Source of the DNA: an uncultured archaeon
Lineage (GTDB): Archaea > Altiarchaeota > Altiarchaeia > IMC4 > SCGC-AAA252-I15
DNA length: 59,292 nt
Direction of reading: 5' to 3'
Assembly: GCA_902384455.1 (NCBI GenBank)
Contig: CABMCB010000068.1
Location: 1-59,292, forward strand
The position numbers were made by a program, and so were the translations under genes. The first letter of the stretch is position 1. Each line of letters starts with the position of its first letter. Shown piece by piece: positions 6,492 to 59,292 of this stretch. The notes below the pieces were generated by a model that was given only the letters and a program-made list of their open reading frames with translations, was not told where the DNA came from and searched no databases.

Positions 6492-8675
6492 TTACTGGAG
6501 GAGTTGGACGATGACTGCTGTAATTCCAGCCGCTTTCATGCTGTTTACCAAGAAAGCAATACGCTGGACGGGGTCAGATACCGCAAACTGCTCGGTATCC
6601 AGAAAACCCCCGTAAGAAGCGTATCCAGAGCCGGTAGACCCCTGAGGGAGGGCGCTGTGGAACGTAGTGGTGAGGTCCTGACTTCCGGTTGTTGCAAACA
6701 GGTCGTTGAAAGACCCGTAGGTTCCTGAATATCCAGAATAGCCCGAGTATCCCGAATAACCGCTCAAGCCCCCCAAGAATACCCCTCGGTTGTCCACCAC
6801 ATTCGAAGTAAAGACCACATAAATATAGAAAGGTCTTTGGGTCTGAATAAAGGTTAGCGGGGTAGCTACGTTTGTTAAACCCATAGTATTTGAATCAAGC
6901 TCTTTAACTGAGTAAGAGCCGGGGAACGAAAACAAGAAGTTGTAGAGGTCGGTGTTGGATGTGTTCTTCTTGGTTTCGGAGAATCCTGTATTCGAACCAC
7001 TCATCGTAAACCCGTCATAAACTCGAATAGACGGGTCGGACGAGTAAATTTTCTGCAAGAAGGACTGAATACTTGCAAGGGCGAGTTTGTTCCCGAACGC
7101 CTGAAGCTTAATTCTCTTCTTGTAATCATCTTGTGGCTCGTTGTAGATTCGAGGAACACCAAACCCAATACCAACCTGTTCAAGGCAGTTTGGCTTACCT
7201 GGGTAAGTGAACGAATCGTCATCGGCCCCGTAGTCGTTCGTGATGCTGTAGTTTGGCTTAATCGGAAGCGATGAGCTGTAGATTAAGGAGTATGTTCCAG
7301 GAATCCCCGTAGGGTCAACAGCGTTAGGCATGTACTGAAGAGTGGCAGTTCCCCCACCTGGAATTGTTACTTGCATAGGTGTTGTGATTTGGAAGATGTA
7401 ATTAGTCTGAGGAGTTCCATCAACAGCGCTGAGGTCCTGAGCTACGTTACTACCACCCGTGACGATAATGTCAGAACCGACACACAGAACGAAAAGAGGA
7501 GGCCCGGCCACCCCAGTCAAGAACTCTGCAGTAAATGGCGTTGCTGGGGAAGGGAGCGGGATGGGAAGTTTCACAACACGAAAGTTAGAGAAGTCCGTAA
7601 CGTAAAGAAACGACCCGTTGTTAGAGATACCAGCAGGGAAGCGTAATTCGGTGTTTCCTGTACCGAAGGAACCCCAATATGCGGTAAATGGGGTTGCCGG
7701 AGAGGGGAGAGGGAGAGGTAACTGAACCACCCTGGAATTGAAGGTATCTACAACGTACATGTCAGACCCGTTGATTGTGATTCCGTTAGGGCCGTTGAAT
7801 TCTGTAGTTCCAGAACCCGGAGAACCCCAGTAAGCCAGAAACGGCGTAGAGGGGGATGGAAGAGGCAACGGAAGCTGAATAACTCGACTGTTTCCATAAT
7901 CTGCAACGTACAAGTAGGTTCCATCTGTTTTGATGTCACTTGGATTAGACAAGCCGGTAGTCCCGCTTCCAGGGGAACCCCAGGTACCAATCAAGTTACC
8001 GTAGGTATCTGTCTGAACGATTCGACAGTTCACATAGTCGGTGACGTAGACGTAACCGCCGTAGGCCAGGATTCCGTAAGGACCACTGTACTGGTCGTTA
8101 TTTCCGAATGTACTCCAAGAAGAAATAATGGAGCCCTGAAGAGTTGTTTTAATGACCCGGTTATTCGAATAGTCGGTAGAGTAGAAATAGAACCCGTCTG
8201 TAGTAATCCCGTTCATGCTGAATCCGCTGGTTACGGGGTCATTAAAATTCCCATAAGTAAGGTTAATGGGAATGGAAACAGAGGAAGTCGTCTTGTTGTT
8301 GATTGTAGTATAGAACGACTTACTTAAATTCTTTGGGTACCCAAGGAATACCCCGTTTGTATTAACTACTTGATTAAGATTGAACAAGTATCCGGGCAAG
8401 GCTACTTCATCAATCACCCCCGAAACTTGAGAAATGTCGGTAAGCTCGACAGCTTCCACCCCAATCAGAGACTGCTGCTCTCCCGCAGCAACTGCTCGCA
8501 GAGCTTCGTCTGTAACACGAGACACAGCATCCATGAGGTTAACAACATTGGAAGCCCCCACCCGGTAAGTGGTGTTGTCGGTCGGGAAAGGAGCCAGTTG
8601 TCCCATGACCTGAGGATACACCTTAGGGGTGTTCTTCAGGATGATTGGCAGTGAAGGTACGGGGTCTTGAGGCAT
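6492..8675 (-). CDS. Baseplate wedge subunit (P2 gpI-like) with inserted NHL-repeat region
   Basis: LEQVGIGFGVPRIYNEPQDDYKKRI and C-terminal MKAAGI wedge motifs; P.gI....lYV.D..N.RV repeats; follows baseplate J. Confidence 0.7.
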   Translation of the reverse strand: MPQDPVPSLPIILKNTPKVYPQVMGQLAPFPTDNTTYRVGASNVVNLMDAVSRVTDEALRAVAAGEQQSLIGVEAVELTDISQVSGVIDEVALPGYLFNLNQVVNTNGVFLGYPKNLSKSFYTTINNKTTSSVSIPINLTYGNFNDPVTSGFSMNGITTDGFYFYSTDYSNNRVIKTTLQGSIISSWSTFGNNDQYSGPYGILAYGGYVYVTDYVNCRIVQTDTYGNLIGTWGSPGSGTTGLSNPSDIKTDGTYLYVADYGNSRVIQLPLPLPSPSTPFLAYWGSPGSGTTEFNGPNGITINGSDMYVVDTFNSRVVQLPLPLPSPATPFTAYWGSFGTGNTELRFPAGISNNGSFLYVTDFSNFRVVKLPIPLPSPATPFTAEFLTGVAGPPLFVLCVGSDIIVTGGSNVAQDLSAVDGTPQTNYIFQITTPMQVTIPGGGTATLQYMPNAVDPTGIPGTYSLIYSSSLPIKPNYSITNDYGADDDSFTYPGKPNCLEQVGIGFGVPRIYNEPQDDYKKRIKLQAFGNKLALASIQSFLQKIYSSDPSIRVYDGFTMSGSNTGFSETKKNTSNTDLYNFLFSFPGSYSVKELDSNTMGLTNVATPLTFIQTQRPFYIYVVFTSNVVDNRGVFLGGLSGYSGYSGYSGYSGTYGSFNDLFATTGSQDLTTTFHSALPQGSTGSGYASYGGFLDTEQFAVSDPVQRIAFLVNSMKAAGITAVIVQLLQ

Positions 8676-46094: not shown

Positions 46095-46664
46095 ATGGCC
46101 ATATCTCCTAATCTCCTACGCACCATCGAGCCTACTCACGCAGCCCAGATTGAAGCCCTCCTGGAGCAGCTTGTATTCCCCGTCGCCCGTAATACCGTCG
46201 TCTGTCCCAATATCAGCCACGGCTTCTTCCGCTCCCACGAGTCCGACCTCGTCTGTGTCTCTAAGGCAGGTTGGCTCACCGAAGTAGAAATCAAGGTTTC
46301 GGCCTCCGACTGGAAGAACGACCGGAAGAAGTCAAAATGGCAGTCCGAGGATGACGCCGTCTCTGAGGAGCTCTATGATAGGCGAGTACGTAGGTTCTTC
46401 TTCGCAGCTCCCCTTTCCCTTGCGCGTAGATACCAGGAATTCAACATAATGCTCTTCGCCGGGGTCCTCGGCTTCTCCTGGGAAGAGTATCAGCGTACTG
46501 GAAGCCCCTACTGTGTCCCTCGGGTAGAACACATCCGACCCGCGAAGGACCTAAAGGGTTCCCGTAAAGTAACCGACAAGGAACTTCTTACCCTCAGCAA
46601 GCTCTCCTCCATGCGCTACTGGGGTCTACGCCAAGCTATGTCCGGAAACCCCTACAACAAATAG
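46095..46664 (+). CDS. PD-(D/E)XK nuclease-like protein (MmcB-like)
   Basis: HESDLV...LTEVEIKVSASDWKNDRKK. Confidence 0.75.
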   Translation: MAISPNLLRTIEPTHAAQIEALLEQLVFPVARNTVVCPNISHGFFRSHESDLVCVSKAGWLTEVEIKVSASDWKNDRKKSKWQSEDDAVSEELYDRRVRRFFFAAPLSLARRYQEFNIMLFAGVLGFSWEEYQRTGSPYCVPRVEHIRPAKDLKGSRKVTDKELLTLSKLSSMRYWGLRQAMSGNPYNK

Positions 46665-46671
46665 ACCCCCA

Positions 46672-46828
46672 GGTGGAACACAGGGCCCTCCTCGTATGGG
46701 ACCCTAATCTGGTTTTTCCCTGTCTTTTTAAAGGGGTGGGGGTAGGTATGTCTGTCTTACTCGCATAGACAGGGTTTCTTAAAGGTAGTCGGAGGAATAT
46801 CCACACCGCGCCGAGGAATCGTTCCACC
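46672..46828 (+). ncRNA. Candidate rod-shaped structured element
   Basis: Nested inverted repeats GGTGGAAC/GTTCCACC, TCCTCG/CGAGGA, CCCTGTCT/AGACAGGG. Confidence 0.35.
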
Positions 46829-46878
46829 CCTCACCAAGGTGCCTGATTTCTGACATGTTTTTTTAAGGGGGGCCTTGA

Positions 46879-47052
46879 CTAGCGCGGCCCTAACTTGGTG
46901 GGCGTGATAGCCTCCAACATATCCACGCCGTGAGGGTTCATTTCCATAAAGGCCTTGATATGGTCCGCAATGAGAATATCAAGGGCGCTTTGCGCGTCCT
47001 GCTTGTATAGTTCGGCTTGTCTTTCGCTTGTGTTAATCGTGCCTTGTGTCAT
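46879..47052 (-). CDS. Early hypothetical protein (57 aa, not in ORF track)
   Basis: Own TTGACA promoter, AAGGGG RBS, MTQGTINTSERQ. Confidence 0.6.
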   Translation of the reverse strand: MTQGTINTSERQAELYKQDAQSALDILIADHIKAFMEMNPHGVDMLEAITPTKLGPR

Positions 47053-47144
47053 GGCCTGCCCCCTTGGTGCGTCTCCCTGCTATGCTGTTATCCTACCCCA
47101 TACCCCACACCCTGTCAAGGGGTATGGGGTGGGGCTTGTGGGCC

Positions 47145-47567
47145 TTAGGCTATGGCCTCCTCCTTGACGGCCTCAAGGCCTTCGAAGGCCTCAACCGTTT
47201 CGGGGTTGTCGTCCACGGTCGGGGCGGCTTGGGGCGTTTCGTCCATGCGGTCGTTCTCGGCAAGGAAAGACAGGTCAAGGGCGCGGCCCATGACAGCGGT
47301 TAAGGGCGCTTCCGTGGTTTCGTCCGGTTCCACCATGAAAGGGGTGGAAGCGGCGCGGCGCGGCGTGTATTCCTTGGAAGGGTTACGCTTGGAAACCCGA
47401 AGGCCGAAACCGTCCTTATAGCCTTCCTTGAGGTGGGAAAGGTCCGTATCCACGGAAGGGCCATAAAGGCCCATGATGATGCGGCGCGTCCTTTCCTTCT
47501 GGATACGCTCCCGCTTGATGTTGTTACGGCGGATTTTCTGAACCTTGCGGATGGTTGCGGCTTGCAT
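47145..47567 (-). CDS. Early hypothetical protein
   Basis: Own promoter, AAGGGGG RBS; basic N-half, acidic C-half. Confidence 0.7.
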   Translation of the reverse strand: MQAATIRKVQKIRRNNIKRERIQKERTRRIIMGLYGPSVDTDLSHLKEGYKDGFGLRVSKRNPSKEYTPRRAASTPFMVEPDETTEAPLTAVMGRALDLSFLAENDRMDETPQAAPTVDDNPETVEAFEGLEAVKEEAIA

Positions 47568-47650
47568 GTTCGGCCCCCTTGGTTGGTTGTAGCCTTTCGG
47601 CTATGGTTGGACTATAGCGCGTCCCTTAGGACGTGTCAAGAAAAAAGATT

Positions 47651-47809
47651 TTATTTTTTCGCGGCCTCCTCTTTGCGGTTGTTTAAATCCTGCATTACTT
47701 CAAAGGGGTAAAGGCCTTGGGCCGTCTCAAAGAAGAAAAAATTATCCTTTTCGACCGTTCCCGTTTTTGCGTTGTAGGTGTACCATTCACCATCGAAAAA
47801 GATTTTCAT
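47651..47809 (-). CDS. Early hypothetical protein
   Basis: ATG 47809 (MKIFFDGEW) after AAGGGGG. Confidence 0.65.
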   Translation of the reverse strand: MKIFFDGEWYTYNAKTGTVEKDNFFFFETAQGLYPFEVMQDLNNRKEEAAKK

Positions 47810-47900
47810 TGCGGCCCCCTTTTGCGTCCTTCTAAATTCAAGTATACTCAAAGGGGTTGAAGTGTCAAGATAAAAAATGATAGAATGAATTTTTTTCAAA

Positions 47901-48135
47901 GGGGGCTAAAACGTTTTAGTGATATGGGAAAACTAAAACGTTTTAATGGAAAGGGGGCTAAAATCGTTTCAAGGTATTGAGGCTGACAAGGCACGGGCTT
48001 AAAACGTTATGAGGTAAGGACCTCGACAAGGGCGGGGCTAAAATCGTTTCAAGGTATGGGACGCGACAAGGGAAAGACTAAAAACGTTATAAGGTTGTGG
48101 ATAAAAAAGGCTTGCCCTAAAATCGTTCTTAGGTT
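47901..48135. repeat. Degenerate tandem repeat array (40-bp period) with DnaA box
   Basis: CGTT cores at 47912, 47939, 47965, 48005, 48045, 48085, 48124; TGTGGATAA at 48096. Confidence 0.8.
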
Positions 48136-48163
48136 TATATTGTGGTGTCGGTTATTTTACAGG

Positions 48164-48508
48164 TTAGAAGGGCAAGCCCTTTGCTTGTCTTATGGTATTT
48201 TGTACGGCCTCAAGTGTAGGCCGGGCCGTTATCCTGTCATGATAATCATCGAAGGCGTTTTCCAGGAATTCCTCGACATGCTCAAGGGTTTTCAACATAT
48301 CAGGCGCGGCCCCGATTAAATCAAAATCGGCCCTTGCCTGCTCTTGTGCTCCCGGGAAAAGGTGGAGGTTATACCCGCTACGGCAAACCGTGCGGTTTGT
48401 CTTGACACCGAAAAGGGTTTTCCCATCGGGGGTCACAACGTCGAAACTATCGCCGGGGTTGCGCGGGGGTAGGACCTTCCAGGTGGGGGCCGCTGTGTTT
48501 GTTACCAT
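48164..48508 (-). CDS. Early hypothetical protein
   Basis: LIGAAPDML, a common phage LIAAAPELL-type motif. Confidence 0.7.
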   Translation of the reverse strand: MVTNTAAPTWKVLPPRNPGDSFDVVTPDGKTLFGVKTNRTVCRSGYNLHLFPGAQEQARADFDLIGAAPDMLKTLEHVEEFLENAFDDYHDRITARPTLEAVQNTIRQAKGLPF

Positions 48509-48549
48509 GACCCCCCACCCCCTTTTTATTTACAGGCCTTGACTACTGA

Positions 48550-48642
48550 TTACTTCCACCGCTTGACTACTAGGAAAAGGCCCCCGTAAATCAGGATAAA
48601 CATTAACGGGGTGAAAGGCGCAAGGTTCGGGGCGTGGTGCAT
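48550..48642 (-). CDS. 30-aa hydrophobic peptide
   Basis: AAGGA RBS; MHHAPNLAPFTPLMFILIYGGLFLVVKRWK. Confidence 0.45.
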   Translation of the reverse strand: MHHAPNLAPFTPLMFILIYGGLFLVVKRWK

Positions 48643-48665
48643 GGTGTTGGTCCTTGTTTAGGTGC

Positions 48666-48770
48666 TGTTTGGGTGGGGTGGGCGTTCCTGGGGTCCTGTC
48701 GCGTACCCTGTAGGACCTGAGCCCTTCAGGAGGAACAACCTACTGCCAGGCTGGCCCGCCCCCTCCCAAC
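48666..48770 (-). ncRNA. Structured RNA or 5' leader
   Basis: Starts at predicted +1 of TTGACA-17-TATCAT; closing stem plus three hairpins. Confidence 0.55.
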
Positions 48771-48875
48771 AAAACCATGATACCACGTCCCCGGCCTGCT
48801 GTCAAGGGTTATTAGCCCTTGAATTCCGGCTCCTGGCTTTCCATGCTGTAACCCAAAACCTCCCCCTTTCCCGGA

Positions 48876-49091
48876 CTATTCCCAGTCCGTGTCATGCAAG
48901 GCCTCACGAACGGCCTTGACAATGGCTTTCTCGTCGAATAGGATATCTTCCAGGTATTCGACCCGCACCCCGCGCCGTCCGTCCGCATCCGCCCCATAGG
49001 CGGGGTCCACGGTTTTGGTGGCTTTGGCTTCGAAGGTGAATTCTTTCCCGTTGGGTAGTTCGATGGTGAATTCAGCGGAGACTTGCGGCAT
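48876..49091 (-). CDS. Early hypothetical protein
   Basis: ATG 49091 after AGGGGG; DPAYGADADGRRG. Confidence 0.7.
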   Translation of the reverse strand: MPQVSAEFTIELPNGKEFTFEAKATKTVDPAYGADADGRRGVRVEYLEDILFDEKAIVKAVREALHDTDWE

Positions 49092-49155
49092 GGTCGGCCC
49101 CCTGTGTCGTTCAACGTGAGAACATATTACCACGGGGGGCCGGACCTGTCAAGGG

Positions 49156-49473
49156 TTACTTGAGGGCCTTAAGGGCCTTATCCACGGCCACCCGGAAGGT
49201 GTCCACGTCCACCCAGGCCCCGCCGTTGAAAGAAACCTGCAATTTGTCGTTTTCGGGGTTGAGGCGGAAAGACCCCAGGTTAGCCAAGGTGCCGGGGTTG
49301 TTGCTCCCGCCCGTCACGGCCACCTCGATGATGTCTTGCCCCGCCACCTCGTGGGCCTCGACACGGGCCCCCAGGTTCCAGCCCCGGACGTGGCCGGAAA
49401 GGCCGCTTTGCTTGGTGCCCATGCGTGTTGCTTGCCCGCGATTGCCTTGCATGCTCCCGTAGAATTGCGCCAT
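49156..49473 (-). CDS. Early hypothetical protein
   Basis: MAQFYGSMQGNRGQATRMG; own promoter and RBS. Confidence 0.75.
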   Translation of the reverse strand: MAQFYGSMQGNRGQATRMGTKQSGLSGHVRGWNLGARVEAHEVAGQDIIEVAVTGGSNNPGTLANLGSFRLNPENDKLQVSFNGGAWVDVDTFRVAVDKALKALK

Positions 49474-49582
49474 GACTTGCCCCCTTGCGTTTCGGTATCT
49501 GCTACCGTGAAAACATTATATCACGTTTTAAGGGATTGTCAAGGGCCTTGCGGGGTTGGGGTGGGTTGGGCTATAATCTTGC

Positions 49583-49618
49583 AAAAAAAGGCCCCTAGCG
49601 TGTAAACTAGGGGCCTTT
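49583..49618 (-). terminator. Intrinsic terminator
   Basis: AAAGGCCCCTAG...CTAGGGGCCTTTTTTT. Confidence 0.85.
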
Positions 49619-49638
49619 GGGTAGGGCTTGGGCGGGGC

Positions 49639-49971
49639 TTACTTGGCCCGCTTCTTTAGTTCGGCCTTGACGGCCTTAGCCAAGGGGCCGCACCACGTGG
49701 AAGCGTTGCAGGTGAAATAAAGGACGATTGACGCCCCGCTGTCCATGCCGTAGGTGTCCTTGACGTTTTCCAGGTCAAGCATTGCGTCAAGGTAGGGGGC
49801 CGCTGTGGGGTGGATGCGCCCGCCTTTCCAGTTCTTTTTGTCAGCGTACACCAGCCCCGCGATTTCCCGGATGGACAGGCTGTCCAGTTTGGGAAGGGTT
49901 AAGGGCGTCTCAGACACTACGCGCCCCTGTGGGCTTTTCTCGTCCACCACGGCCACGATTAAATCCCCCAT
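49639..49971 (-). CDS. Early hypothetical protein
   Basis: ATG 49971; AAPYLDAM...YGMDS...VLYF..NASTW. Confidence 0.75.
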   Translation of the reverse strand: MGDLIVAVVDEKSPQGRVVSETPLTLPKLDSLSIREIAGLVYADKKNWKGGRIHPTAAPYLDAMLDLENVKDTYGMDSGASIVLYFTCNASTWCGPLAKAVKAELKKRAK

Positions 49972-50078
49972 GCTATGCCCCCTTGTGTTCAGCGTGATAA
50001 CATCATAACACAAAATAAAAAATAGTCAAGCGTTATTTTATTCTTGACACGCAGGCGGGACCGTGGTATCATGTTGTT

Positions 50079-50184
50079 AGTAGGCCACAAGGCCGGGGGA
50101 GGTACTCGTACACCTTAACAACGGATATCGTTTTTAGTCCCCCAAAATAAAAAGCCCTCGACCCTTGACAGGTCGGGGGCTTTT
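50079..50184 (+). ncRNA. Small RNA copy 1
   Basis: TTGACA-17-TATCAT promoter, terminator at 50147-50184, no start codon after GGAGG, homologous to 51584. Confidence 0.6.
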
Positions 50185-50199
50185 GTGCTACGTTGGCCG

Positions 50200-50538
50200 T
50201 TACTTGGGGGCCTTCGTCACCACCACCTTGAGCGATTCCACGGGGAAGGTGTTGATGAGTTTCTTGGCTTTCAGCAGGTCTTCACCGAATTCCCGGATGG
50301 TTTCCTCCAGGCTGATGGAATCCCGGTCGTAGGACGTCACCACGGCGGACAGGCCGTCCACGTCCATGGTGCGGCTGTCGCTCTTCTCACCCTTCACCTT
50401 GGGGATGCCCCGGACCTCGATTTCCTCCAGGATGACGGCCTTGAGTTCCGCCTTGCGCTTCTCGGCCTTGGTGAAGGCCGAAGCCACCTGCCGGTACTCC
50501 GCCAGCACCTTCTTGATGTCCGCATTCGCCGTTGCCAT
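50200..50538 (-). CDS. Early hypothetical protein
   Basis: Own promoter, AGGGGG RBS. Confidence 0.7.
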   Translation of the reverse strand: MATANADIKKVLAEYRQVASAFTKAEKRKAELKAVILEEIEVRGIPKVKGEKSDSRTMDVDGLSAVVTSYDRDSISLEETIREFGEDLLKAKKLINTFPVESLKVVVTKAPK

Positions 50539-50773
50539 ACACTACCCCCTGACTACTGGATTCGGTCACTGTCGACCGTGAAAACATGATATCACGTCAT
50601 TACTGGATTGTCAAGGATTGAATTTCTTTTTTAATTGTGTTAATCTCATTCCACGAATCTATATCAATTTGCTTCCACCCCTCCAACACGCGCAGGCGCA
50701 ACCGCAGGAATTCCAGGCGGTGGGCTTTCTCGTCTATGGCAGGTTGGGCGGTGGGTTTGGGGGTTCTCACGGT

Positions 50774-50977
50774 TCAGGCCTTGCCCACGGTATACCACTT
50801 GGAAACGTGGGCATTATAGTCGTCGGTGCCGGGGATGAGGTCGGGGCGCGTGTCCTTGACGTATTCCTCAAGGAACGTATTGCAGGCTTGCAGGGTATCG
50901 AGGCCAAAGATAACTTCGGATGCCCCCTCGTATACCCGGTACCCCCCTGCCGTTTTCTTCTTGCCCCTGTACCGCAT
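50774..50977 (-). CDS. Early hypothetical protein
   Basis: Own promoter, GAGGAGG RBS. Confidence 0.65.
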   Translation of the reverse strand: MRYRGKKKTAGGYRVYEGASEVIFGLDTLQACNTFLEEYVKDTRPDLIPGTDDYNAHVSKWYTVGKA

Positions 50978-51135
50978 GGCCCCCTCCTCGACTACTGGAC
51001 TACTGACATATTACCAGGATAGGCCCCTCTTGTCAAGGGCCTTGACGGCCTTGCGGTTGTATGCTTTCTTGGAGCCCTTAACCTTGGGGGTTGTCTTGAT
51101 ACCCCAGACACGGCGGGCCCTGTCTTTGGCCTTGA

Positions 51136-51477
51136 TTAGTATGCGGTCGTGGGGCATTCCAGGCCAAGCCCTTTCAGGATTCGCCGGTAAACCTCGGCCT
51201 TGGACATGTAATAATCATAATGCTGTTCGCCGGGCCGGAAGTTCGTCCACATGTTGGCGGACACGTTGCGGGTGATATCCAGGGTGAGGGTGCCGGGTAT
51301 GCGGTAATAATCCATGAAACCGGCCCGGCTATAGTGGGCGATGAAGCCCGAGGCGAGGTACAGGAAATTGTACCCCGTGGAATTCAGAGCGGTGATGTCG
51401 TTGCAGGCCTTCAGGACATTGGCCACAATGCGGTCTTGCATGGCCTTGGTCAACGGAAGAATCGGCTTGTTTGGCAT
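51136..51477 (-). CDS. Early hypothetical protein
   Basis: YNFLYLASGFIAHY; own promoter and RBS. Confidence 0.75.
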   Translation of the reverse strand: MPNKPILPLTKAMQDRIVANVLKACNDITALNSTGYNFLYLASGFIAHYSRAGFMDYYRIPGTLTLDITRNVSANMWTNFRPGEQHYDYYMSKAEVYRRILKGLGLECPTTAY

Positions 51478-51583
51478 GTTGCCCCCTTGTGTTCAGCGTG
51501 GATACATAATACCGCATTACTAGACTACTGTCAATATAATTTATTTTGTTGACAGGCTGGGGGTGCCGTGGTATTATGGTGTC

Positions 51584-51695
51584 AGTAGGCAATGCGCCGA
51601 GGGAGGTACTCGTATACAATAATAACGGATAACGATTTTAGGACCATATAAAAGGACGCCCCCACCACCCCAGGGGGCCGGGATGGTGGGGGCTG
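51584..51695 (+). ncRNA. Small RNA copy 2
   Basis: TTGACA-17-TATTAT promoter; homologous to 50079; followed by GCCCCCACCA/TGGTGGGGGC hairpin. Confidence 0.6.
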
Positions 51696-51737
51696 AATTC
51701 CAGTGGACGAGGGGGCCCGTCCATGGTATCCTGTAGG

Positions 51738-51929
51738 CTAGACCGTGGCGCGATGCGCGGCCCGGAAGGCCCGGGTCACCAACCGACGGCGGGCCGGGGT
51801 CCAATGCTGGGCCTTGAGGCCCAAGGTGGCGAGGATGGCCAGTTCCCGGAGGATATTCCCCGTGCGCTTGAGACGGCGCTTGGTGGTGGTGGCTTTGGCG
51901 AGGTAGTAATTCCCCGGACACTTTTTCAT
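51738..51929 (-). CDS. Basic early hypothetical protein
   Basis: ATG 51929 after AGGGGG. Confidence 0.55.
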   Translation of the reverse strand: MKKCPGNYYLAKATTTKRRLKRTGNILRELAILATLGLKAQHWTPARRRLVTRAFRAAHRATV

Positions 51930-51994
51930 TCTCAACCCCCTAAGGTGGTTTGTCCTTCCCATCACCTACATACTACCACACTACTGGACTACTG

Positions 51995-52729
51995 TCAAGC
52001 CTTTTCGAGGAGGGTCAAGGCGGGGTCCACCACGAATCCCGAGGTATCCTTGCGGGCCTTGCCCTTGGCAATGAGGCCCACAATGGCCCCCTGATAGCCT
52101 TCCTCGAAACGGAGGTCGGTCTTATCCCCGTTCAAGACCTTGCGGCCCAAGAATTCCTTGGGTAGGCTCTTCCCACGGAAGACCACGGCGACATTGATAC
52201 CGGCCTCAAGGGCCCGCATCACGTCCACCATATTACTCTCGGACCTGGAAAATGTCAAGTGGTAATTCGCCACTTGGTTTTCCAGGGCTTTCTTGATATC
52301 CTTGGTGTAGTCGTAGAATTGAATATCGGGGAAGGCCTCAAAGACGGTCTTTCCCTGATAGGGGCGGAAAGCCCCAAAATTGATGTCGGACGTGCCATTG
52401 AGGCGGACGAAAGCCTTCTTACCCGTCCGCAAGGCGGACCGTTGCAGGGCTTCCAGTTCCTCGAAAAGGGTTTGGAAAAACAGGTCCTTGTTCTTGAACC
52501 ACAAGGCGGTTTTCCTCAACCGGCCCTTGATGACAGGGGCCATGACACCCCGGCCCGCTGTGAAAAGGCAGGATTCCTTGCATCCTTGGGAAGCGAACGG
52601 GCAAAGGTTGCCCATACCGCTTTGTTTCTCCGGGGTCAGGTACAGGATAGACCCCACATAGCCCCCCTTGGCTATGCTCTTGGCGGTCTTGTAGTTCTTG
52701 CTTGCGGCTGATAGGACGTTGTCGGCCAT
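51995..52729 (-). CDS. Gene product 88 (GP88)-like Cys-motif protein
   Basis: LCPFASQGCKESCL, VRLNGTSDI, FYDYTK, YHLTFSRSE, GDKTDLRF. Confidence 0.8.
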   Translation of the reverse strand: MADNVLSAASKNYKTAKSIAKGGYVGSILYLTPEKQSGMGNLCPFASQGCKESCLFTAGRGVMAPVIKGRLRKTALWFKNKDLFFQTLFEELEALQRSALRTGKKAFVRLNGTSDINFGAFRPYQGKTVFEAFPDIQFYDYTKDIKKALENQVANYHLTFSRSESNMVDVMRALEAGINVAVVFRGKSLPKEFLGRKVLNGDKTDLRFEEGYQGAIVGLIAKGKARKDTSGFVVDPALTLLEKA

Positions 52730-52829
52730 GCCTTGCCCCCTTGTGTTACTTGCAACGTGGATACATAATAACACAAGCCCACGGATTGTCAATCATAATC
52801 CGAGGGCTTGTATTTCAGGCTTGGCCGTG

Positions 52830-53072
52830 CTACCTTGAGGATAACCGCACCTTTCTCTTTTCCTCCCTCTTCCCATCCCTCAGAATGACCAGCCGCTGCA
52901 GGTCCATGAGGTCTTGCAGGCCGAGTTGTATCTCCAGGCACGTGCTCTCGATGGCATGCCTCTTGGGGCCCGAGGACAGAATACGAGCGTCCCTCTTGGC
53001 CTTGGAAACCATCTTGAAAACCTCAGTGTAGGCCTCCAATTTGTTCCCCGCTTCCAGAACCAAGCTCTTCAT
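52830..53072 (-). CDS. Hypothetical protein
   Basis: AAGGAGGT RBS, own promoter. Confidence 0.65.
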   Translation of the reverse strand: MKSLVLEAGNKLEAYTEVFKMVSKAKRDARILSSGPKRHAIESTCLEIQLGLQDLMDLQRLVILRDGKREEKRKVRLSSR

Positions 53073-53260
53073 GCTTGACCTCCTTGCAATGATGAATCAT
53101 CCTACCACAGCCCCCTCCCTCCGTCAAGGGGCTTGACAACCCCCCACCCCGTGTGCTATACTGGAGGTTTGGCCATTATTATTCACGACTACTGGACTAC
53201 TGAGCCTTGTCAAGAAACTAATCACTTGACTACCGGACTACTGTGTGGTACAGTGGGGCC

Positions 53261-53449
53261 ATGGATAAAAGCCGCTGTCATAAAACCGAAAAGCCTGACC
53301 CTTCCTATGCGGCCCATTTGAGGCTCCTTCGTAAGCATTGGGAAGGAAAGTTGGAATACGCTAAGCAACACGACTATGAGGGAGTAGACTTGCCCCAAGG
53401 TGTTATTCAAGGCCTTTCAATAGCCATCACCCTCCTCGAACAAGGCTAA
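53261..53449 (+). CDS. Hypothetical protein (leaderless)
   Basis: TTGACT-17-TACAGT with ATG 7 nt later. Confidence 0.55.
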   Translation: MDKSRCHKTEKPDPSYAAHLRLLRKHWEGKLEYAKQHDYEGVDLPQGVIQGLSIAITLLEQG

Positions 53450-53632
53450 CCCCCTCCCCCTCAAGAGGTACCCCCACCCCCCCCACTGGACTACTAGACT
53501 ACTGAGCCCCCTTACGTGTGCGAGGGGACAGAGGGAGCACGGACAGGGGAATACTGGACTACTGGGTTGTCGTGTAAATTATTAAGCCCATAAAACCAAG
53601 GTATTACTGGACTATTGAGAACCCATCAATAA

Positions 53633-53686
53633 TGTAAAATTTTTTTACATGTAAAGGGACCTTACACAGTGTAAAGTTCTAATACA
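53633..53686. repeat. Three tandem TGTAAA-N5-(T/C/A)(T/A)TACA boxes
   Basis: 53633-53649, 53650-53666, 53670-53686. Confidence 0.65.
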
Positions 53687-53761
53687 CCCTACCAGTCAAC
53701 CCCCCAGTCCCTTTTATGATTGACTGGGAGTACCCGACTACTGTATCCTGGGACTACTGAG

Positions 53762-54068
53762 TTATTTGTCGAGGTAGAATGAGCACAGGAAGCAAGCGAC
53801 CATGACCACAAGGGATGTACAGTAGTAGATGGTCTTGGAGACGTTGCCTTTTTCGGAGTGGTATTTGGCCATTCCCATGCTATAGACCACCATCAGAACC
53901 ATCAAAGTCTTCAAGTCAATCCTCCTGGTGGGGTTTGGGTTCCCACTGTTGGCATGGGCCAAGGATGTCGTTCTCGGCCTCTTCCTCGGCCTTACGCCCG
54001 GAGTAGCCCAGGGAGAGGTAATGCTGGATACGCTCGGCAATGAGTTCTTCTTGGGCTCCCCGTGGCAT
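53762..54068 (-). other. Two small ORFs (53916-54068; 53762-53914 membrane peptide with TTG start)
   Basis: Promoter at 54126; AGGGGG and AGGAGG RBSs. Confidence 0.5.
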
Positions 54069-54129
54069 GTACTACCCCCTACCCTTAGGATGACTACAGC
54101 GTACCAGGGAAAGGGTGAAGTGTCAAGTA

Positions 54130-54309
54130 TTACTTGACTACTGATTTTCCCTTGTATTTCACACACGGACGTGGTATGATGCCCCTGCGGCATTGTACCT
54201 TGCTCTTCCTCTCGCACCCTACGGCCTCATGGGGGTCGCTCCCAGTGCAGAACCTGCAATGGGAGGACCTTTTATCGGTGTCGGGGCAGATGTATGGGGT
54301 CTTGGGCAT
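54130..54309 (-). CDS. Cys/His-rich small protein (59 aa, not in ORF track)
   Basis: TAATG coupling; YICP...C..C....PH....C...PCVKY. Confidence 0.6.
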   Translation of the reverse strand: MPKTPYICPDTDKRSSHCRFCTGSDPHEAVGCERKSKVQCRRGIIPRPCVKYKGKSVVK

Positions 54310-54821
54310 TACTTACCCGGGTAGGCCACGGCCCATAGTTTCTCACCGATGGCCTGCAGGGGGGCCGAAATGCCGTCGTTGTCCTTGTCCAGGGCGTCCA
54401 GGCAGTCCACCAGGGCCTTGCATTCCTCCTTGGTGAGGAGTACCGTGGTGGGGGCAGGCTTGGGGGACTTGACGGCCTTGAGGGTCACGGTCACGGTATG
54501 GCCCCCGTCGTCGGTGTCGACCAAGACGTAGTCCTCGGAGGGCTTGCGGAAATAATCCGTGTCCTTCAGCACCTGGGACCACTGCTCCTTGAACAGGTAG
54601 CAGGGGTCACCCACGTACACGCCCGTCTGGGTCTTGACAAGGCCCTTGGCCTCGCCATACCCGCGCACCTTGAGGGTGGCGTTCACGGGGCCCTTGGCGT
54701 CGATGTAGGTACACGTGGGATAGAACGAGGTGGGCCGGTATTTGCCCTTGTACTTGGCGATGAATTCCTTCGAAACCACCGCCACCATCCCCGCATCCAC
54801 CGGCACGTCCGTGAGTCTCAT
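54309..54821 (-). CDS. Hypothetical protein
   Basis: ATG 54821 after GGAGG; VDAG and VGDPCY motifs. Confidence 0.7.
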   Translation of the reverse strand: MRLTDVPVDAGMVAVVSKEFIAKYKGKYRPTSFYPTCTYIDAKGPVNATLKVRGYGEAKGLVKTQTGVYVGDPCYLFKEQWSQVLKDTDYFRKPSEDYVLVDTDDGGHTVTVTLKAVKSPKPAPTTVLLTKEECKALVDCLDALDKDNDGISAPLQAIGEKLWAVAYPGK

Positions 54822-54911
54822 GTATGCCTCCCCTATTAGGATGACTATATAATATCCGATTTTATTGTTACTGTCAATACACATTAAACGAATTTAATAT
54901 GTAATATAATA

Positions 54912-54947
54912 AATAAAAGGCCGTGCGGAGGGGAACCGCACGGCCTT
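54912..54947 (-). terminator. Intrinsic terminator
   Basis: AAGGCCGTGCGG-loop-CCGCACGGCCTTTTATTT. Confidence 0.85.
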
Positions 54948-54978
54948 GACCTGCGTGGGTTGGGGTGTTATGATGCCC

Positions 54979-55218
54979 TTACTTCAACCCCTCCACCATG
55001 CTCAAGCGGGTGGCCTTGGGCCAGTTCTCCGCCCGCGCAACCACGCGCCTGATGGCCCGGTTGATGTCGCCCTTGTCGGCGTCACAGATGTACCGGGGGA
55101 CCGAGGAACCCTTGCCGGTGTCTTTATCCCGGCTGAATTCCGTGTGGTCGAAGGACAAATTGCCCTTCTTGGTCTTGCAGATGTAGCACTGCTTGACCTC
55201 GTCGTTCGCATTCGCCAT
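54979..55218 (-). CDS. Zn-binding hypothetical protein
   Basis: CYIC...ICDAD; GAGG RBS. Confidence 0.65.
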   Translation of the reverse strand: MANANDEVKQCYICKTKKGNLSFDHTEFSRDKDTGKGSSVPRYICDADKGDINRAIRRVVARAENWPKATRLSMVEGLK

Positions 55219-55301
55219 GGCAGACCTCTCAGGTGGTGTTGTCGACTACTGACCCAGTATATCCTACCTGGGTCAGTATGTCAACCCCTGGGACTACCAG
55301 A

Positions 55302-55754
55302 CTACTCGAATTTCCGGGCCTTCACCAGCTCGTCCAGGGTCCAGCGGCGCACCAGCTTGGCCTGGGACAGGTCCTTCATGCCCCAAGGGGTGGAGTACAC
55401 CTCGACCCCGAAGTCCTTGGTGATGCGGTAGGCGAACTCGATGTCCCCGTGCCACTGGGTGTCGATTCCGTGGGACAGGAAATCCTGCTTGAACTTCCGG
55501 TTGGCGTAGGCCGGGTCGTTGGGGTAGGACTTCTTCATCTTGCGGTTGAAGGCCTTGCGGTCGGTCACGTCGTCCTGGATGAGGGTGGCCGACAAGTGGG
55601 CCGTCAGGTACGCTGGGTCCCACCCTCGTCCATCCTCGAAGGCGGGCAGAAGCTTCTTGAGTGTCGGAAGCACCCCCGAAGGGTACCCGTCGCAATGCTT
55701 GTACACCTTGGCCTCCTCGTTCTCCTCGACCACTAACTGGCACCGAGTGCTCAT
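55302..55754 (-). CDS. Phage protein with YxHxDGYP motif
   Basis: VYKHCDGYPSGV...HGDIEFAY. Confidence 0.75.
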   Translation of the reverse strand: MSTRCQLVVEENEEAKVYKHCDGYPSGVLPTLKKLLPAFEDGRGWDPAYLTAHLSATLIQDDVTDRKAFNRKMKKSYPNDPAYANRKFKQDFLSHGIDTQWHGDIEFAYRITKDFGVEVYSTPWGMKDLSQAKLVRRWTLDELVKARKFE

Positions 55755-55868
55755 GTCCTTCCCCTTTTCCCCTGTATTATCAACGTGAGAGCATAATACC
55801 TGAATATCCTGCCGCTGTCAATATATTATTTTGGCTTGACAAGGGAATATATTTCGAATATATTGGGG

Positions 55869-56000
55869 GTGTAGTGAGCGGCGCAAGCCGTTAGTCTGGC
55901 TGGGGTCTATCCCCTAACCCGGGAGAAAGCCCTTTACTGCGAAAGCTTTAAGCCACGTAGGGAGCACAGCCTTGGAATCGTGGCCTCACTACGCTTTTAT
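55869..56000 (+). ncRNA. Multi-branched structured RNA
   Basis: TTGACA-17-TATATT; closing stem GTAGTGAG/CTCACTAC; GCAA and GAAA tetraloops; U-rich tail. Confidence 0.65.
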
Positions 56001-56019
56001 TTCATAGGGGAGGTTGTTC

Positions 56020-56325
56020 ATGCCGGAGCCATTCAAAATCAACGGCAAGCATGCCTGCTACGTGGCATTGCACAACGGCATCGGTTTGGTGGTCGAGGGT
56101 GAGCAAGGCTACCACCCCGTGTGCGAGGGCTATAGTGGCCCCAACACCATGAAGGCCTACCAGGACTGGGTGGACGAGCGCAACAAGAACCTGGGCGTGT
56201 CCGAGGAAGACGCCAACGCCCTCCACATCGGGTCCATGATGGGCTGGGATGTCCCCGGCGCGGGGCGCTTCCGCCAGGGGTACAAGTGGCCGGTACCCAT
56301 CACCCGCACACCATGCCGCGCCTGA
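56020..56325 (+). CDS. Hypothetical protein
   Basis: GGGAGG RBS; GSMMGWDVPGA. Confidence 0.7.
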   Translation: MPEPFKINGKHACYVALHNGIGLVVEGEQGYHPVCEGYSGPNTMKAYQDWVDERNKNLGVSEEDANALHIGSMMGWDVPGAGRFRQGYKWPVPITRTPCRA

Positions 56326-56344
56326 GTACTTGACGAGCGCTTGA

Positions 56345-56500
56345 CTACTGAGGCCTCTTCCTGCGGGGAGAGGCCTTTTTATTTGTCTTTTTTACTTGAC
56401 GGGTACTTGACAGTTCTCCGCGAGAGGCCTTTACGTAGGCCTCCTCGATTTCCTTGGCAACTTCTTTGCGGTATTGACTTCTCGTATCGAAGACGTACAT
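56345..56500 (-). CDS. Small basic hypothetical protein
   Basis: GGAGG RBS, ATG 56500. Confidence 0.5.
   Translation of the reverse strand: MYVFDTRSQYRKEVAKEIEEAYVKASRGELSSTRQVKKTNKKASPRRKRPQ
56351..56384 (+). terminator. Intrinsic terminator
   Basis: AGGCCTCTTCC-TGCG-GGGAGAGGCCTTTTTATTT. Confidence 0.8.
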
Positions 56501-56591
56501 GGCACCCCTCCCAGTGTATCCAGTATACACAATGTCAAGTTTAATGTCAAGAATACTTGACTACTGAGGATTTATTTGATAGAGTGTTTTA

Positions 56592-56903
56592 ATGAAAATA
56601 TGTCCCTTAGCCTCCACCTGTAAAAGCACCTGCTACCACAAGCAGCCCCATCAGCGTACGGGCAGCTCTTGTGATTTTGGGGTATCCGACCTATCAAGGT
56701 GCCAGCCTTGTATTGAATATACAGGCGATGTTCAGAATCAGCAGGCTACTCAGGCACCCGCTGTACCAGAGGACCAGCAGTACATTTGCCCCAAGCTGGA
56801 GTGCAGTGAACGAAAAGGCTGCAACCACGCTAACCCACACTCCGAGCGTACAGCCTGCCATTCTTTTGACAGGAAAAGCTGTGTTCCGTGTATCTTTGCT
56901 TGA
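56592..56903 (+). CDS. Cys/His-rich two-repeat protein (leaderless)
   Basis: Two ICP...C...C.H..PH...C...C.PCI units; TTGACT-17-TAGAGT. Confidence 0.7.
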   Translation: MKICPLASTCKSTCYHKQPHQRTGSSCDFGVSDLSRCQPCIEYTGDVQNQQATQAPAVPEDQQYICPKLECSERKGCNHANPHSERTACHSFDRKSCVPCIFA

Positions 56904-56933
56904 CTTACTGATTATTTTATAGTATAATACACC

Positions 56934-57074
56934 ATCGGCTAGACTCCCTTGCCGTCCGAGGCCACGGTTAATACCCGTCCGCCCTAAGAAATATCGGGCC
57001 GGTACCTGGGTAGGGTCCAAACCTCCCTACTACTGGCAATAACAACAGGGAGCCGTGCGCCCTCTATAGGGCTT
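56934..57074 (+). ncRNA. Multi-branched structured RNA
   Basis: TTGACT-17-TATAAT; CTCCCT/AGGGAG and TTGCC/GGCAA closing stems; no ORF. Confidence 0.55.
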
Positions 57075-57084
57075 GACTACTGGC

Positions 57085-58153
57085 CTACAGGTGTACATCG
57101 GGCATACTAATATATTTGCCCATGTTCCATACACGACGTTCCATATCATCACGCAAGCGCATAGCCCAATCTATGTCGACCTTGTAGTGGGCGGAGGTAC
57201 CCTCCAGCATAGGACCGGGTACACCACATGTAGCAGCAATGAGGTCACCCTTAAACTGGTTTATAGCTTGAGCACTGAAATCAAAGGACTGAAATGCTGG
57301 CATGGTATAACCATGTCTTAATACAACCAAACACTTATCACAGCCCGCATGACACTTCTTGCACGTGGTTTGGTACCACGAGTTGGTCATGCTCTGTACG
57401 TCTTTGATATCCTCCCCACAATATGTACGTCCAGTAATGGGGTTTAGGTTGTGAGTATCGCTTAGCACTGGGAGTCTCCTAGCTGGAGGCTTCGCCTTGG
57501 GGCTTGGTCTTCTTCACGAGGGCTTCAATGACAAGGTCGCGTTGTTCGATTTCAGATTTCAAAAGCTCAATTTGTTTCAGGGCTTCGAGGTACATTTGGG
57601 TTTGACACGGTCTGTCCTCGAAGTTGTGCTCACACCGACCTGGAGGGCTGCAGTCAGCCGCAATCGAGAATTCCTCTTCGGGTGTCAAGGGAGGTATGTC
57701 CCAGTAAATAGCCATGTTTTACTTCCTAAAGATGCTGATGGACTGAACCTTCGTGATTTTGGCATTCAAGCTCAGGTCTTCCACTTCGCGGTAGAACTTC
57801 TGGGCTTGCTCAGCCACCTTGACGAACGCTTCCTTATCCTCATCAAGGAGTGCCTGGGCTCCATTGTCGAAGAGGTTGTCACAGTGTCCGCTGATGTCGG
57901 GCATGTTCAGGTCGACACCCATACCATGGAACTTGTCCATGTACCACGCAATGCTTCGGGCCCACGAAACGATGTCCAGCCTCAAGGACCACACGGTCAA
58001 GTCGTTCGAACTGGTGCAAAAGCTACCGTCGCTCACCTCGTGCACGTGTCCGTCTTCGACCCGCTTGACCTGGACAAGTTTGTAGTTGTGCATTCCCCAG
58101 TCACCTACCTTGGGGGTCCAGCCCGTGTTGTACTTTCGGTCAAGCACTCGCAT
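57085..58153 (-). other. Three hypothetical ORFs (57085-57468, 57479-57715, 57719-58153)
   Basis: Tightly packed minus-strand operon. Confidence 0.65.
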
Positions 58154-58844
58154 TGAAGGTGTCTCCCACGATTCGCTCAAGGTTGATTTTCTTCCAGATG
58201 GGAATCTTCGCAGCCTGCAGGGCCCGTACCAGTCTCACGATTTTTTCCTTGGAGGGCTCGGGCAGGCCGGACTTCTTGGAATCAGCTCCGATGTTGACGA
58301 ATTCAGGCTTGAGGTCCTCAAGCCATTCGACCATAGTCTCCACGTCGAAATCGAGAATGGGTTCGATGGTCACGAACTTCTTGACACGTCCGAGGCTCAT
58401 CATGCCTTGGTAGCGGTCATACGGACGGACAGCTTTGGAAATCTCCGAGTAGTCTCGGTTGCTTTCGATGGTTGTACCGACTAGACAGTCGGGGAACACG
58501 TCGAATCGAAACTCTTTCAGGCGGGGTGCGTTCTTGGTCTGGAAGACGTACTTGTTCTTCGGATACTGAAAGCAGTGATTCAAAATGGCAGCCACCCACG
58601 GGTCTTTCACACCTGGGGCGAACATGTCATTCATGTGCTCGATGAAGATGGTCTTACCCTCACCGTAGTTGACCTGGAACTCATGCTCAAGCAGGCGGAT
58701 AGGGCCCTTGTATTTCTCACTGAGCTGAGCCCTGCCACGCTGAACATAACAGTACGAGCACTCGTGAGAGCAGCGGCCACCCAAATGCGTGTGCATATGG
58801 GTGACCCAGTCGTACATTTGACCAGAAGCCTTAACGAGTGGCAT
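58140..58844 (-). CDS. Radical SAM protein (DUF5131/Gp37Gp68-like)
   Basis: CSHECSYCY CxxxCxxC; IFIEHMNDMF, FQTKN, FVTIEPIL. Confidence 0.85.
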   Translation of the reverse strand: MPLVKASGQMYDWVTHMHTHLGGRCSHECSYCYVQRGRAQLSEKYKGPIRLLEHEFQVNYGEGKTIFIEHMNDMFAPGVKDPWVAAILNHCFQYPKNKYVFQTKNAPRLKEFRFDVFPDCLVGTTIESNRDYSEISKAVRPYDRYQGMMSLGRVKKFVTIEPILDFDVETMVEWLEDLKPEFVNIGADSKKSGLPEPSKEKIVRLVRALQAAKIPIWKKINLERIVGDTFNASA

Positions 58845-58863
58845 ATTACAACCTTTGTGTAAA

Positions 58864-59017
58864 TAGAGGGCTCCCGGTAGACCTCACGAGTGGTCAAGCG
58901 CAATGCTTAGGACTCGTTCACCGAGGGGAATAGCTACCGACTTACGATTCGATAGTAGAGCCCCTTAGTAGGTCAGTATCTGCAGCCAACCCTGCAGACG
59001 GTCCCGGCAGCCCTCTA
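58864..59017 (-). ncRNA. Multi-branched structured RNA
   Basis: TAGAGGGCT/AGCCCTCTA closing stem plus four internal stems filling the intergenic space. Confidence 0.6.
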
Positions 59018-59020
59018 GTC

Positions 59021-59292
59021 TTACAGCGCCGAGGTGAAGTTGGTGGCCTGGAAGTACGCCTTCCAGAACTTGGTGCGGAAGTCCTTGCTGAACTCCGGGT
59101 TGGACAGCGCCCGCTGCAGGGAGTAACGGCGTCCCTTCAAGCGGTTGAACTGGTCCTTCGGATGGAGGTGGGCCACACCTTCGAATGCCTCGCCGCCTTC
59201 CGGTGTGATGGTGCAGGACGTACCCTTGGCACCTTCCTTGGAGTTATGTCGGAACTCCAGGGTGAACTCTTTGCCGTCGATTTGGATTTTCA
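59021..59292 (-). CDS. Hypothetical protein (start codon cut by the window edge)
   Basis: KIQIDGKEFTLEF...HPKDQFNRLKGRRYSL to TAA 59021. Confidence 0.6.
   Translation of the reverse strand, partial: KIQIDGKEFTLEFRHNSKEGAKGTSCTITPEGGEAFEGVAHLHPKDQFNRLKGRRYSLQRALSNPEFSKDFRTKFWKAYFQATNFTSAL

Follow-up and report, generated by a model that had tools for sequence, protein, structure and literature searches.

The host-takeover module of SPO1 is described as lying in the terminal redundancy and comprising genes 37–60. Phage lambda produces the OOP RNA, a convergent antisense RNA that starts from its own promoter and overlaps the terminator region of an early gene. In the Herelleviridae, RNA-seq of phage K and vB_SauM-515A1 has revealed non-coding RNAs, some short and some long, to which no function is assigned, and the long ones are reported to resemble ROOL and GOLLD (PMC10383478). 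The early RNA of the SPO1 relative SP82 carries targets of RNase III (Panganiban and Whiteley 1983; Mitra and Bechhofer 1994; both as cited in PMC4838370), and PMC3997798 lists among its references work on the STAB-SD and on a polypurine 5' stabiliser. As kinds of element, structured leaders in early regions, RNase III sites and small RNAs of phages are already known. The DNA analysed here is the whole of contig C68 (CABMCB010000068.1), a stretch of 59,292 nucleotides that we call the window, and its early region contains six units, U1 to U6, beginning at 48666, 50079, 51584, 55869, 56934 and 58864. We read them as non-coding parts of four kinds in an SPO1-type early region, a reading that we regard as reasonably probable: what appear to be two genes for small RNAs of one conserved family (U2 and U3), two mRNA leaders (U1 and U4), the start of an antisense transcript (U5) and an operon spacer (U6). 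Promoters, homology, synteny, fold energies and a micro-protein are the observed part of this reading, and the functions attached to it are what we infer from them.

The long open reading frames (ORFs) of the window include matches to tail sheath, baseplate, major head protein, head protease, RNA ligase and two sigma factors, and by these matches it is a myovirus distantly like SPO1. A second contig, C4, begins with the same 127 bases with which the window ends, and this overlap extends the phage to at least 128,379 bp. The resemblance to the SPO1 module lies in dense small genes of unknown function behind strong host-sigma promoters, in the phage-encoded sigma factors and in a major head (capsid) protein 44–47% identical to SPO1-like Bacillus phage counterparts; the differences are a G+C of about 51–53% and a lack of DNA similarity to phage records, C68 having no match, near or distant, among 50,697 of them. 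Between 47000 and 59292 most genes are small and lie on the minus strand. Seven of 25 small early genes match PHROGs, all with 'unknown function', and two of the 25 pass the Pfam cut-off (GP88 and DUF5131). A promoter scan of the same interval returned 37 sites against 7.7 expected from shuffles (standard deviation 2.8), 24 of which match at least 10 of 12 positions. Because consensus promoters are this dense and the small genes lack known functions, 'takeover region', the name under which an initial annotation had placed the units, is a fair label for what looks like the early region of an SPO1-like phage. Gene order varies among relatives, which points to frequent rearrangement of cassettes, and the region would be a series of many small cassettes, each with promoter, gene and terminator, that the host RNA polymerase transcribes. 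SPO1-like takeover regions have been studied protein by protein, and to our knowledge the takeover effectors known in this phage group are proteins only; the present region appears to hold a conserved small-RNA family and conserved structured leaders.

The six units and their folds

The initial annotation had described the units as ORF-less and structured, with a consensus −10 box upstream of five of them and a stem beginning about 7 nucleotides (nt) after it. The promoters stand: five units lie behind sigma-70-type promoters (Table 1), that of U1 being on the minus strand. The spacing does so only roughly, since the first paired base after the −10 box comes at 6 nt in U1 and U4, whose folds begin right at the predicted transcript start, and at 10–11 nt in U2, U3 and U5. 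'ORF-less' is not accurate, as mechanically called ORFs of at least 30 amino acids (aa) overlap all six units; nine of these ORFs were compared with PHROGs and Pfam, and none has a match.

Folding separates the units further. Each fold was compared with 200 dinucleotide shuffles, and a regional background was taken from 264 windows of 150 nt on both strands of 46501–56475, with 30 shuffles each. The background has a mean z-score of −0.69 (standard deviation 1.32); three of its windows reach −4.09 or lower, the twentieth best scores −2.77, and several of the best-scoring windows lie within genes. Measured in this way, U6 folds better than its shuffles and U1 marginally so. The z-scores of U3, U4 and U5 lie at the regional background, so that these three do not pass the comparison with shuffled DNA that the annotation had itself proposed. 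With half of the 'structured units' folding no better than the surrounding genes, promoter-adjacent, gene-free DNA should not be taken for RNA genes where homologues are lacking.

Table 1. Positions, strands and folding of the units and neighbouring features (MFE, minimum free energy; SD-like, Shine-Dalgarno-like; z, fold z-score)
Feature	Position	Strand	Sequence or structure	Fold z
U1 promoter	48805..48777	−	TTGACA-17-TATCAT with TG extension	
U1 closed-stem 5' leader (class B)	48645..48771	−	interrupted helix of about 15 bp; MFE −56.1 kcal/mol	− strand −2.4 / −2.5 (3/200 shuffles); + strand −0.75
30-aa hydrophobic micro-protein ORF	48550..48642	−	served by the U1 leader	
U2 promoter	50044–50072	+	TTGACA-17-TATCAT; conserved in 7/7 family members	
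U2 core (class A)	50079..50149	+	P1 hairpin, SD-like G run, GGUACUCGUAC, 8 variable nt, AACGGAUAUCGUUUUUAG, C run	+ strand −4.47, terminator hairpin included
Two-way terminator hairpin	50150..50186	both	common to U2 and convergent gene 50200–50538(−)	
Second promoter-like site, inside the U2 terminator	50165	+	TTGACA-18-TACGTT	
U3 promoter	51549–51577	+	TTGACA-17-TATTAT	
U3 core (class A)	51584..51653	+	similarity to U2; core alone −6.7 kcal/mol	+ strand −0.92
Terminator of convergent unit (GP88 gene and 63-aa gene)	51658..51693	−	+ strand without U tract	
U4 promoter	55836–55864	+	TTGACA-17-TATATT	
U4 leader of gene 56020–56325 (phrog_10280)	55871..55994	+	8-bp closing helix, then UUUUAUUU (U-rich), two GNRA-type loops	+ strand −1.2 / −1.4
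U5 promoter	56900–56928	+	TTGACT-17-TATAAT	
U5 untranslated transcript start	56935..57084	+	runs into 3' end of convergent gene 57085–57468(−), no terminator between	+ strand −1.1 / −0.5
U6 promoter-like site	58818	+	9-of-12 match only	
U6 four-way junction	58866..59014	−	MFE −68.1 kcal/mol; MFE structure is 0.185 of ensemble	− strand −4.15 (0/200 shuffles); + strand −3.44
Part-palindromic array	47895..48140		7 copies, period 40 then 27; outside the six units	
22-tRNA cluster	C4:2065–9860 (joined 61230–69025)		Rfam agrees; several directly behind early-type promoters	

Comparison with described RNA families identifies none of the units. At the gathering score, Rfam 15 matches two tRNAs only in the whole window, and in 48000–59292 no family matches the body of any of the six units at an E of up to 10. 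The nearest matches, His_leader at 50146–50258 and Thr_leader at 50150–50184, fall on the U2 terminator hairpin, and the best of all, RefA9 at 54883–54947, scores 38.5 bits where the family's gathering score is 49, and it too lies on a terminator. The U2/U3 family and the U1 leader family match nothing in Rfam, nor were their likes found in the literature on SPO1-type phages, RNase III and STAB-SD, in which no search was aimed at these sequences. The Herelleviridae RNAs introduced above were found by expression; those described here are predicted from sequence and match neither ROOL nor GOLLD.

Specific designs were considered as well. Type III antitoxin RNAs of the ToxI kind consist of tandem direct repeats of about 34–45 nt, and no tandem array occurs inside any of the six units. 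A crude repeat scan of the 103 contigs of the bin to which C68 belongs, which is probably not the host, found no CRISPR-like array. Sponges for CsrA of the CsrB/RsmZ type present many GGA motifs in hairpin loops; in the U2/U3 family there is a pair of such motifs, spaced by 25 nt and outside any clear loop, and no CsrA gene is present in the contigs of that bin. None of these comparisons lends support to a role in anti-defence.

Probable leaders, a predicted antisense start and an operon spacer

Relatives of the region were reached through the GP88 gene that neighbours U3. Its product is 73–74% identical in four short contigs from a single metagenome scan, L095 to L098, and 66% identical in the IMG/VR contig L013. 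Comparison with L096 resolves the nature of unit 1: judged by its sequence relatives, it is a conserved mRNA leader of a conserved membrane micro-protein of 25–30 aa and not a free RNA. The leader is 128 nt long, against 20–41 nt for most early genes. The 30-aa product has no match in PHROGs; it shares 42% identity across 24 aa (pairwise E 3e-6) with the product of a 25-aa ORF at L096:8310–8387, which stands in a cassette of the same build, with a promoter at 8146 and a leader at 8175–8300 that has almost the same first 20 nt and a matching C-rich end strand. The closing helix is kept between the two leaders and the interior is not, and 7 of 26 predicted pairs have changed on both sides, a count that comes from two sequences only. 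A second closed-stem leader, L096:5866–6030 (z −3.9), precedes an acidic 57-aa ORF, and the ends of a leader of about 100 nt in L013 (promoter 6570) look complementary by eye. A pattern scan for leaders of this class B gave six loci, all of them chance matches. The micro-protein was also considered as a type I toxin; the peptide is present, and no convincing antisense promoter accompanies it.

U4 is a leader of the same general design as U1. Its gene is preceded by 149 nt of leader, which again contrasts with the usual 20–41 nt, and a search for relatives through the neighbouring gene gave 19-aa matches only. Because the ribosome site of the U1 message lies outside the helix, a role in mRNA stability or processing is what this leader suggests, and the U4 leader may act likewise.

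U5, which follows a near-perfect promoter, would begin one of several antisense transcripts that converge on early units and point at their 3' ends. Plus-strand promoters that converge on minus-strand units lie at 48916, 50044/50165, 51549, 53720, 54946 and 56900, and such transcription into the units could exert antisense control or make polymerases collide at the unit ends. The likeness to the OOP RNA of lambda is that U2, U3, U5 and the other convergent promoters point at the 3' ends of early genes.

U6 fills the 175 nt that separate gene two from gene three in a minus-strand operon of six genes, whose promoter lies at C4:449. Its closing helix has 14 pairs with two interruptions; an RNase III site of early phage mRNA has about two turns of interrupted double helix within a polycistronic transcript. 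The initial annotation had given U1 and U6 one topology, and refolding does not confirm this: on its transcribed strand U1 forms a single long hairpin with interruptions, in U6 three hairpins are enclosed by a closing stem, and the two have no sequence similarity either. U6 may be a processing or stability signal of the kind that RNase III cuts in early phage mRNAs. Long interrupted helices between or before early cistrons, here as predicted folds only, are what U6 and the closing helices of U1 and U4 have in common with the RNase III sites of SP82 and T7; U6 differs from these in being a four-way junction and not a simple hairpin, and it is unrelated to them in sequence.

The untranslated stretches of U4, U5 and perhaps U6 could instead be functionless spacer DNA left by cassette shuffling, behind promoters that are real. 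This is a real possibility, if an unlikely one, and it draws on two of the points that weigh against our own reading of the units. The folds of U4 and U5, like that of U3, are no better than the regional background, and no homologue of U4, U5 or U6 was found in any of the sequences fetched. For U6 the search went further: 16 loci with a DUF5131 gene were found, one of them (L196) was left out since its match starts at base 3, and none of the 15 relatives inspected, most with 52–59% identity, has a U6-like spacer; a second copy is also absent from the bin. That gene order differs between relatives suits the spacer explanation too. Against it, U6 is among the most stable folds of the region, with an MFE structure that dominates the ensemble, and leaders of 100–165 nt with closing helices recur in L096, with one more in L013.

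A candidate small-RNA family at 50079 and 51584

U2 and U3 are best read, from sequence comparison, as real small-RNA genes of a conserved family, class A, which is apparently undescribed. The two are paralogues, 78% identical over 97 nt including the promoter (E 1.3e-15), and they resemble each other alone among the six units. Seven distinct copies are present in three phage lineages, namely U2 and U3 in the window, two copies in L095 and three in L096, which L097 repeats; one of the two in L095, at 465–510, is divergent (nhmmer E 0.0026). With its filters off, nhmmer found none in L013, in the other loci or in the rest of the bin. As a candidate stand-alone gene, class A has a promoter, a terminator hairpin and seven conserved copies.

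All seven promoters are of the extended −10 kind and consist of TTGACA, a spacer of 17–18 nt ending in TGn, and TAnnnT. The predicted RNA begins with AGUAGG and a hairpin of 4–8 pairs that differs by lineage, and continues with CCG(G/A)GGGA, the invariant block GGUACUCGUAC and eight variable bases, a number that is fixed. The second block then follows as AACGGAUAUCG(A/U)UUUUAG, or with UAUGAG in three copies (consensus AACGGAUAUCGWUUUUAG), and leads into a C-rich run. Between the predicted 5' end and the SD-like run GGGGGAGGU there are 17–25 nt, and the run is not followed by a start codon. The 3' part consists of an A-rich run and then a hairpin, and it is the reverse reading of the terminator that serves the convergent minus-strand gene; a U tract comes after the hairpin on the plus strand in U2 alone.

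Placement is conserved along with sequence. U2 and copy L096a stand after a homologue of gene 50200, and U3, L095a and L096b after the GP88 unit; these are, in this order, the a-type and the b-type copies. The c-type copies of L095 and L096 lie between genes of the same strand, with the next promoter immediately after, and are antisense to no gene. The window has no c-type copy and keeps the matching second promoter at 53133.

RNAalifold pairs GGUACUCGU with ACGGAUAUC, which places the eight variable bases in an 11-nt loop. In this helix of the invariant blocks 94.6% of cells are paired, and two of its pairs are G-U, which work on the plus strand only. The first hairpin beats its shuffles at p<0.03 in three of six distinct sequences, and it and the terminator stems are the only parts that change with their pairing kept. 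Four features lead us to take class A for a real small-RNA gene: the invariant promoter geometry, a hairpin that varies and is maintained, the fixed loop length and the two G-U pairs valid on the plus strand only.

Several findings on the family weigh against that reading, as the folds and missing homologues discussed above do against the reading of the other units. None of the 14 pairs of the core has changed on both sides and shuffles score equally, so covariation gives the core no support. The helix between the G run and the C run (P2) is paired in only 61.9% of cells. The U3 core is nearly unfolded on its own (−6.7 kcal/mol). The family is known from three phage lineages only, and pattern scans for its motifs yielded chance matches only: scans of IMG/VR gave 4, 1 and 13 loci and a genome collection 2, all of them due to chance on alignment or inspection, among them L203, which was inspected by eye.

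The RNA would run against the early genes and end in, or read through, the terminator of the convergent gene, so that its 3' end would overlap the terminator of the convergent mRNA. In this it resembles the OOP RNA, from which it differs in two ways: its c-type copies are antisense to no gene, and its conserved 70-nt core is situated beyond the overlap, so that conservation of the core calls for an explanation other than antisense pairing. A stable trans-acting RNA whose invariant blocks are recognised by one factor is the function we favour, with the G run as a putative 5' stabiliser. The STAB-SD is similar in that a strong SD-like run near the predicted 5' end is not followed by a start codon; it differs in belonging to Bacillus mRNAs, whereas the class A element would belong to a small RNA. 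If class A RNA is expressed and stable, the family offers a compact, testable candidate for an RNA that acts in early infection as an effector or a regulator, with two to three copies per genome in fixed placement against early genes.

Two pairing schemes for the RNA were tried and set aside. A search for pairing of the variable loop with neighbouring mRNAs gave one 10-bp match, between the loop of L096a and the 5' end of the leader at L096:5866, and nothing like it in the window or for the other copies. The C run could form five to six pairs, counted by eye, with the GGGGG ribosome sites of early genes, and it is absent from U3.

The core has a relative in the window, at DNA level, in the part-palindromic array at 47895–48140. 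Tandem Repeats Finder reports 47955–48095 with a period of 40, 3.5 copies and 69% matches; the consensus of the array is ACCTTNNAACGWTTTTAGCCCC, and two of its units are each the perfect palindrome CTAAAACGTTTTAG. Read on the minus strand, the array gives seven copies of ACCUUNNAACGWUUUUAGCCCC followed by an AT-rich stretch, and alignment of these copies with the class A core covers 11–16 nt in its 3' half. A syntenic array at L096:8795–9030 has units in both orientations, in which the half-site variants TTTTAG and TTATGAG swap freely. In both phages a conserved gene for a basic/acidic protein lies just downstream; the product of the window's gene (47145–47567) looks mostly disordered. From its sequence the array looks like an operator or iteron cluster. 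A further exact copy of AAAACGATTTTAGCCCC occurs at joined position 64062, on the minus strand of C4, in a gap of the tRNA cluster and opposite the tRNA genes.

The array raises the question of whether the class A core is itself a site in DNA, an operator, iteron or part of an origin bound by a dimeric protein, beside promoters that this protein would regulate or that fire into the site, and with an RNA that has no function of its own. We rate this as quite unlikely and give it weight at all because a part-palindromic motif that occurs in either orientation suits a dimeric DNA-binding protein. The core is built of palindromic pieces (GTAC..GTAC, GATATC, AACG..CGTT), has no compensatory changes and aligns in its 3' half with the units of the seven-copy array and the AT-rich stretch behind it, next to a conserved protein gene; the two orientations and half-site swaps of the L096 array suit a DNA-binding site as well as they do an RNA motif. 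However, the distance and orientation of a consensus promoter are fixed across all seven class A copies, the first hairpin changes its sequence and stays a hairpin, and the blocks pair through G-U pairs that are valid only in plus-strand RNA. In addition, the nine copies of the motif in the window would read alike in RNA if they were transcribed in the local gene direction, the copies in the array being tandem duplicates and not independent of one another.

The shared motif can also be taken the other way, with class A and the seven-copy array forming one RNA network that presents WAWCGWUUUUAGNCC to a single host or phage factor and in which class A would add a fixed-stem hairpin whose eight variable loop bases give each paralogue its own target. 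Sequence likeness makes this conceivable and we consider it improbable; if true, it would amount to a sequence-programmed RNA arm of host takeover in early infection.

A protein-coding explanation is very improbable for class A. In pairs such as ibs/Sib a small toxin gene lies opposite the RNA that silences it, and the layout here is similar: on the gene strand, a peptide of 21–26 aa (..LK[ST]ISV..YEYLPR..) would be silenced by the complementary plus-strand RNA. The antisense frame is open for 29–55 codons in all seven copies, a further finding that speaks against our reading, and a start codon 9–11 nt past a GGGGG run is present in U3 and L096b (ATG) and in L095a (GTG). In two of the five a and b copies (U2 and L096a), however, the start codon is missing, and the stretch from the upstream terminator to the frame has no promoter. 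Nor do substitutions in the frame follow a codon pattern: variable sites fall 6/6/6 over the codon positions, and at least eight codons, invariant in the peptide, are free of synonymous changes. The C-terminal frame is also shifted where the first hairpin differs in length by 1 nt.

Hardly probable at all is the proposal of the initial annotation that the six units belong together as a coordinated RNA arm of takeover or anti-defence (protein sponges, antitoxin or crRNA mimics), which can point to the position of all six in the early region, five of them behind strong promoters, and to the motif that class A shares with the array as a candidate repeated binding site in RNA, but which is weakened by units that lie on both strands in four contexts (U1 being a minus-strand mRNA leader, U4 a leader, U5 an antisense start and U6 an operon spacer), by a resemblance limited to U2 and U3, by three folds at background and by the lack of tandem repeats in the units and of Rfam matches.

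The phage and its early promoters

C68 is one of 103 contigs of a bin assigned to the Altiarchaeota. Bacterial sigma factors and sigma-70-type promoters in such a bin probably reflect a binning error, and because the phage contig is probably mis-binned, inferences about its host drawn from the bin are unsafe. No DNA similarity to C68 was found in 20 genomes of the bin's family. A search of public sequencing runs for the stretch gave no matching RNA run and four DNA runs, each with less than one-tenth of its words. On C68 and C4 joined together, ARAGORN finds 27 tRNA genes, 22 of which are clustered past the end of the window; Rfam matches in the first 20 kb of C4 are tRNAs only.

C4 carries one long leader of its own. 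At C4:1237–1633 (locus L197) a promoter is followed by a gene-free leader of about 370 nt and then by a gene for a small membrane protein. The leader, of which 358 nt (L197:1268–1625) were folded, is at the level of its shuffles (z 0.08) and has no Rfam match. At the other extreme, a Cys-rich 103-aa ORF at 56592 (window 56557–56903) and the first gene of the operon that contains U6 (C4:413–449) each start 7 nt past a −10 box, which suggests leaderless mRNAs.

The composition of the phage is biased against two short sequences. Its 128,379 bp contain a single GATC where about 402 would be expected, and no ATCGAT where 17.5 would be. This amounts to strong avoidance of restriction-type sites. ATCGAT would arise at exactly those class A bases at which the copies in the window differ from the copies in L096.

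The early promoters have a motif of their own. GACTACT(G) occurs in 21 copies at 48541–57075, all on the plus strand, and in 32 copies in the 128-kb phage, and it is also found in L095 and L096. It is often doubled as GACTACTGGACTACTGA and often occupies the spacer just after the −35 box (TTGACAGTAGTC.. / TTGACTACTGG..). GACTACT(G) is probably the operator for a regulator of early promoters.

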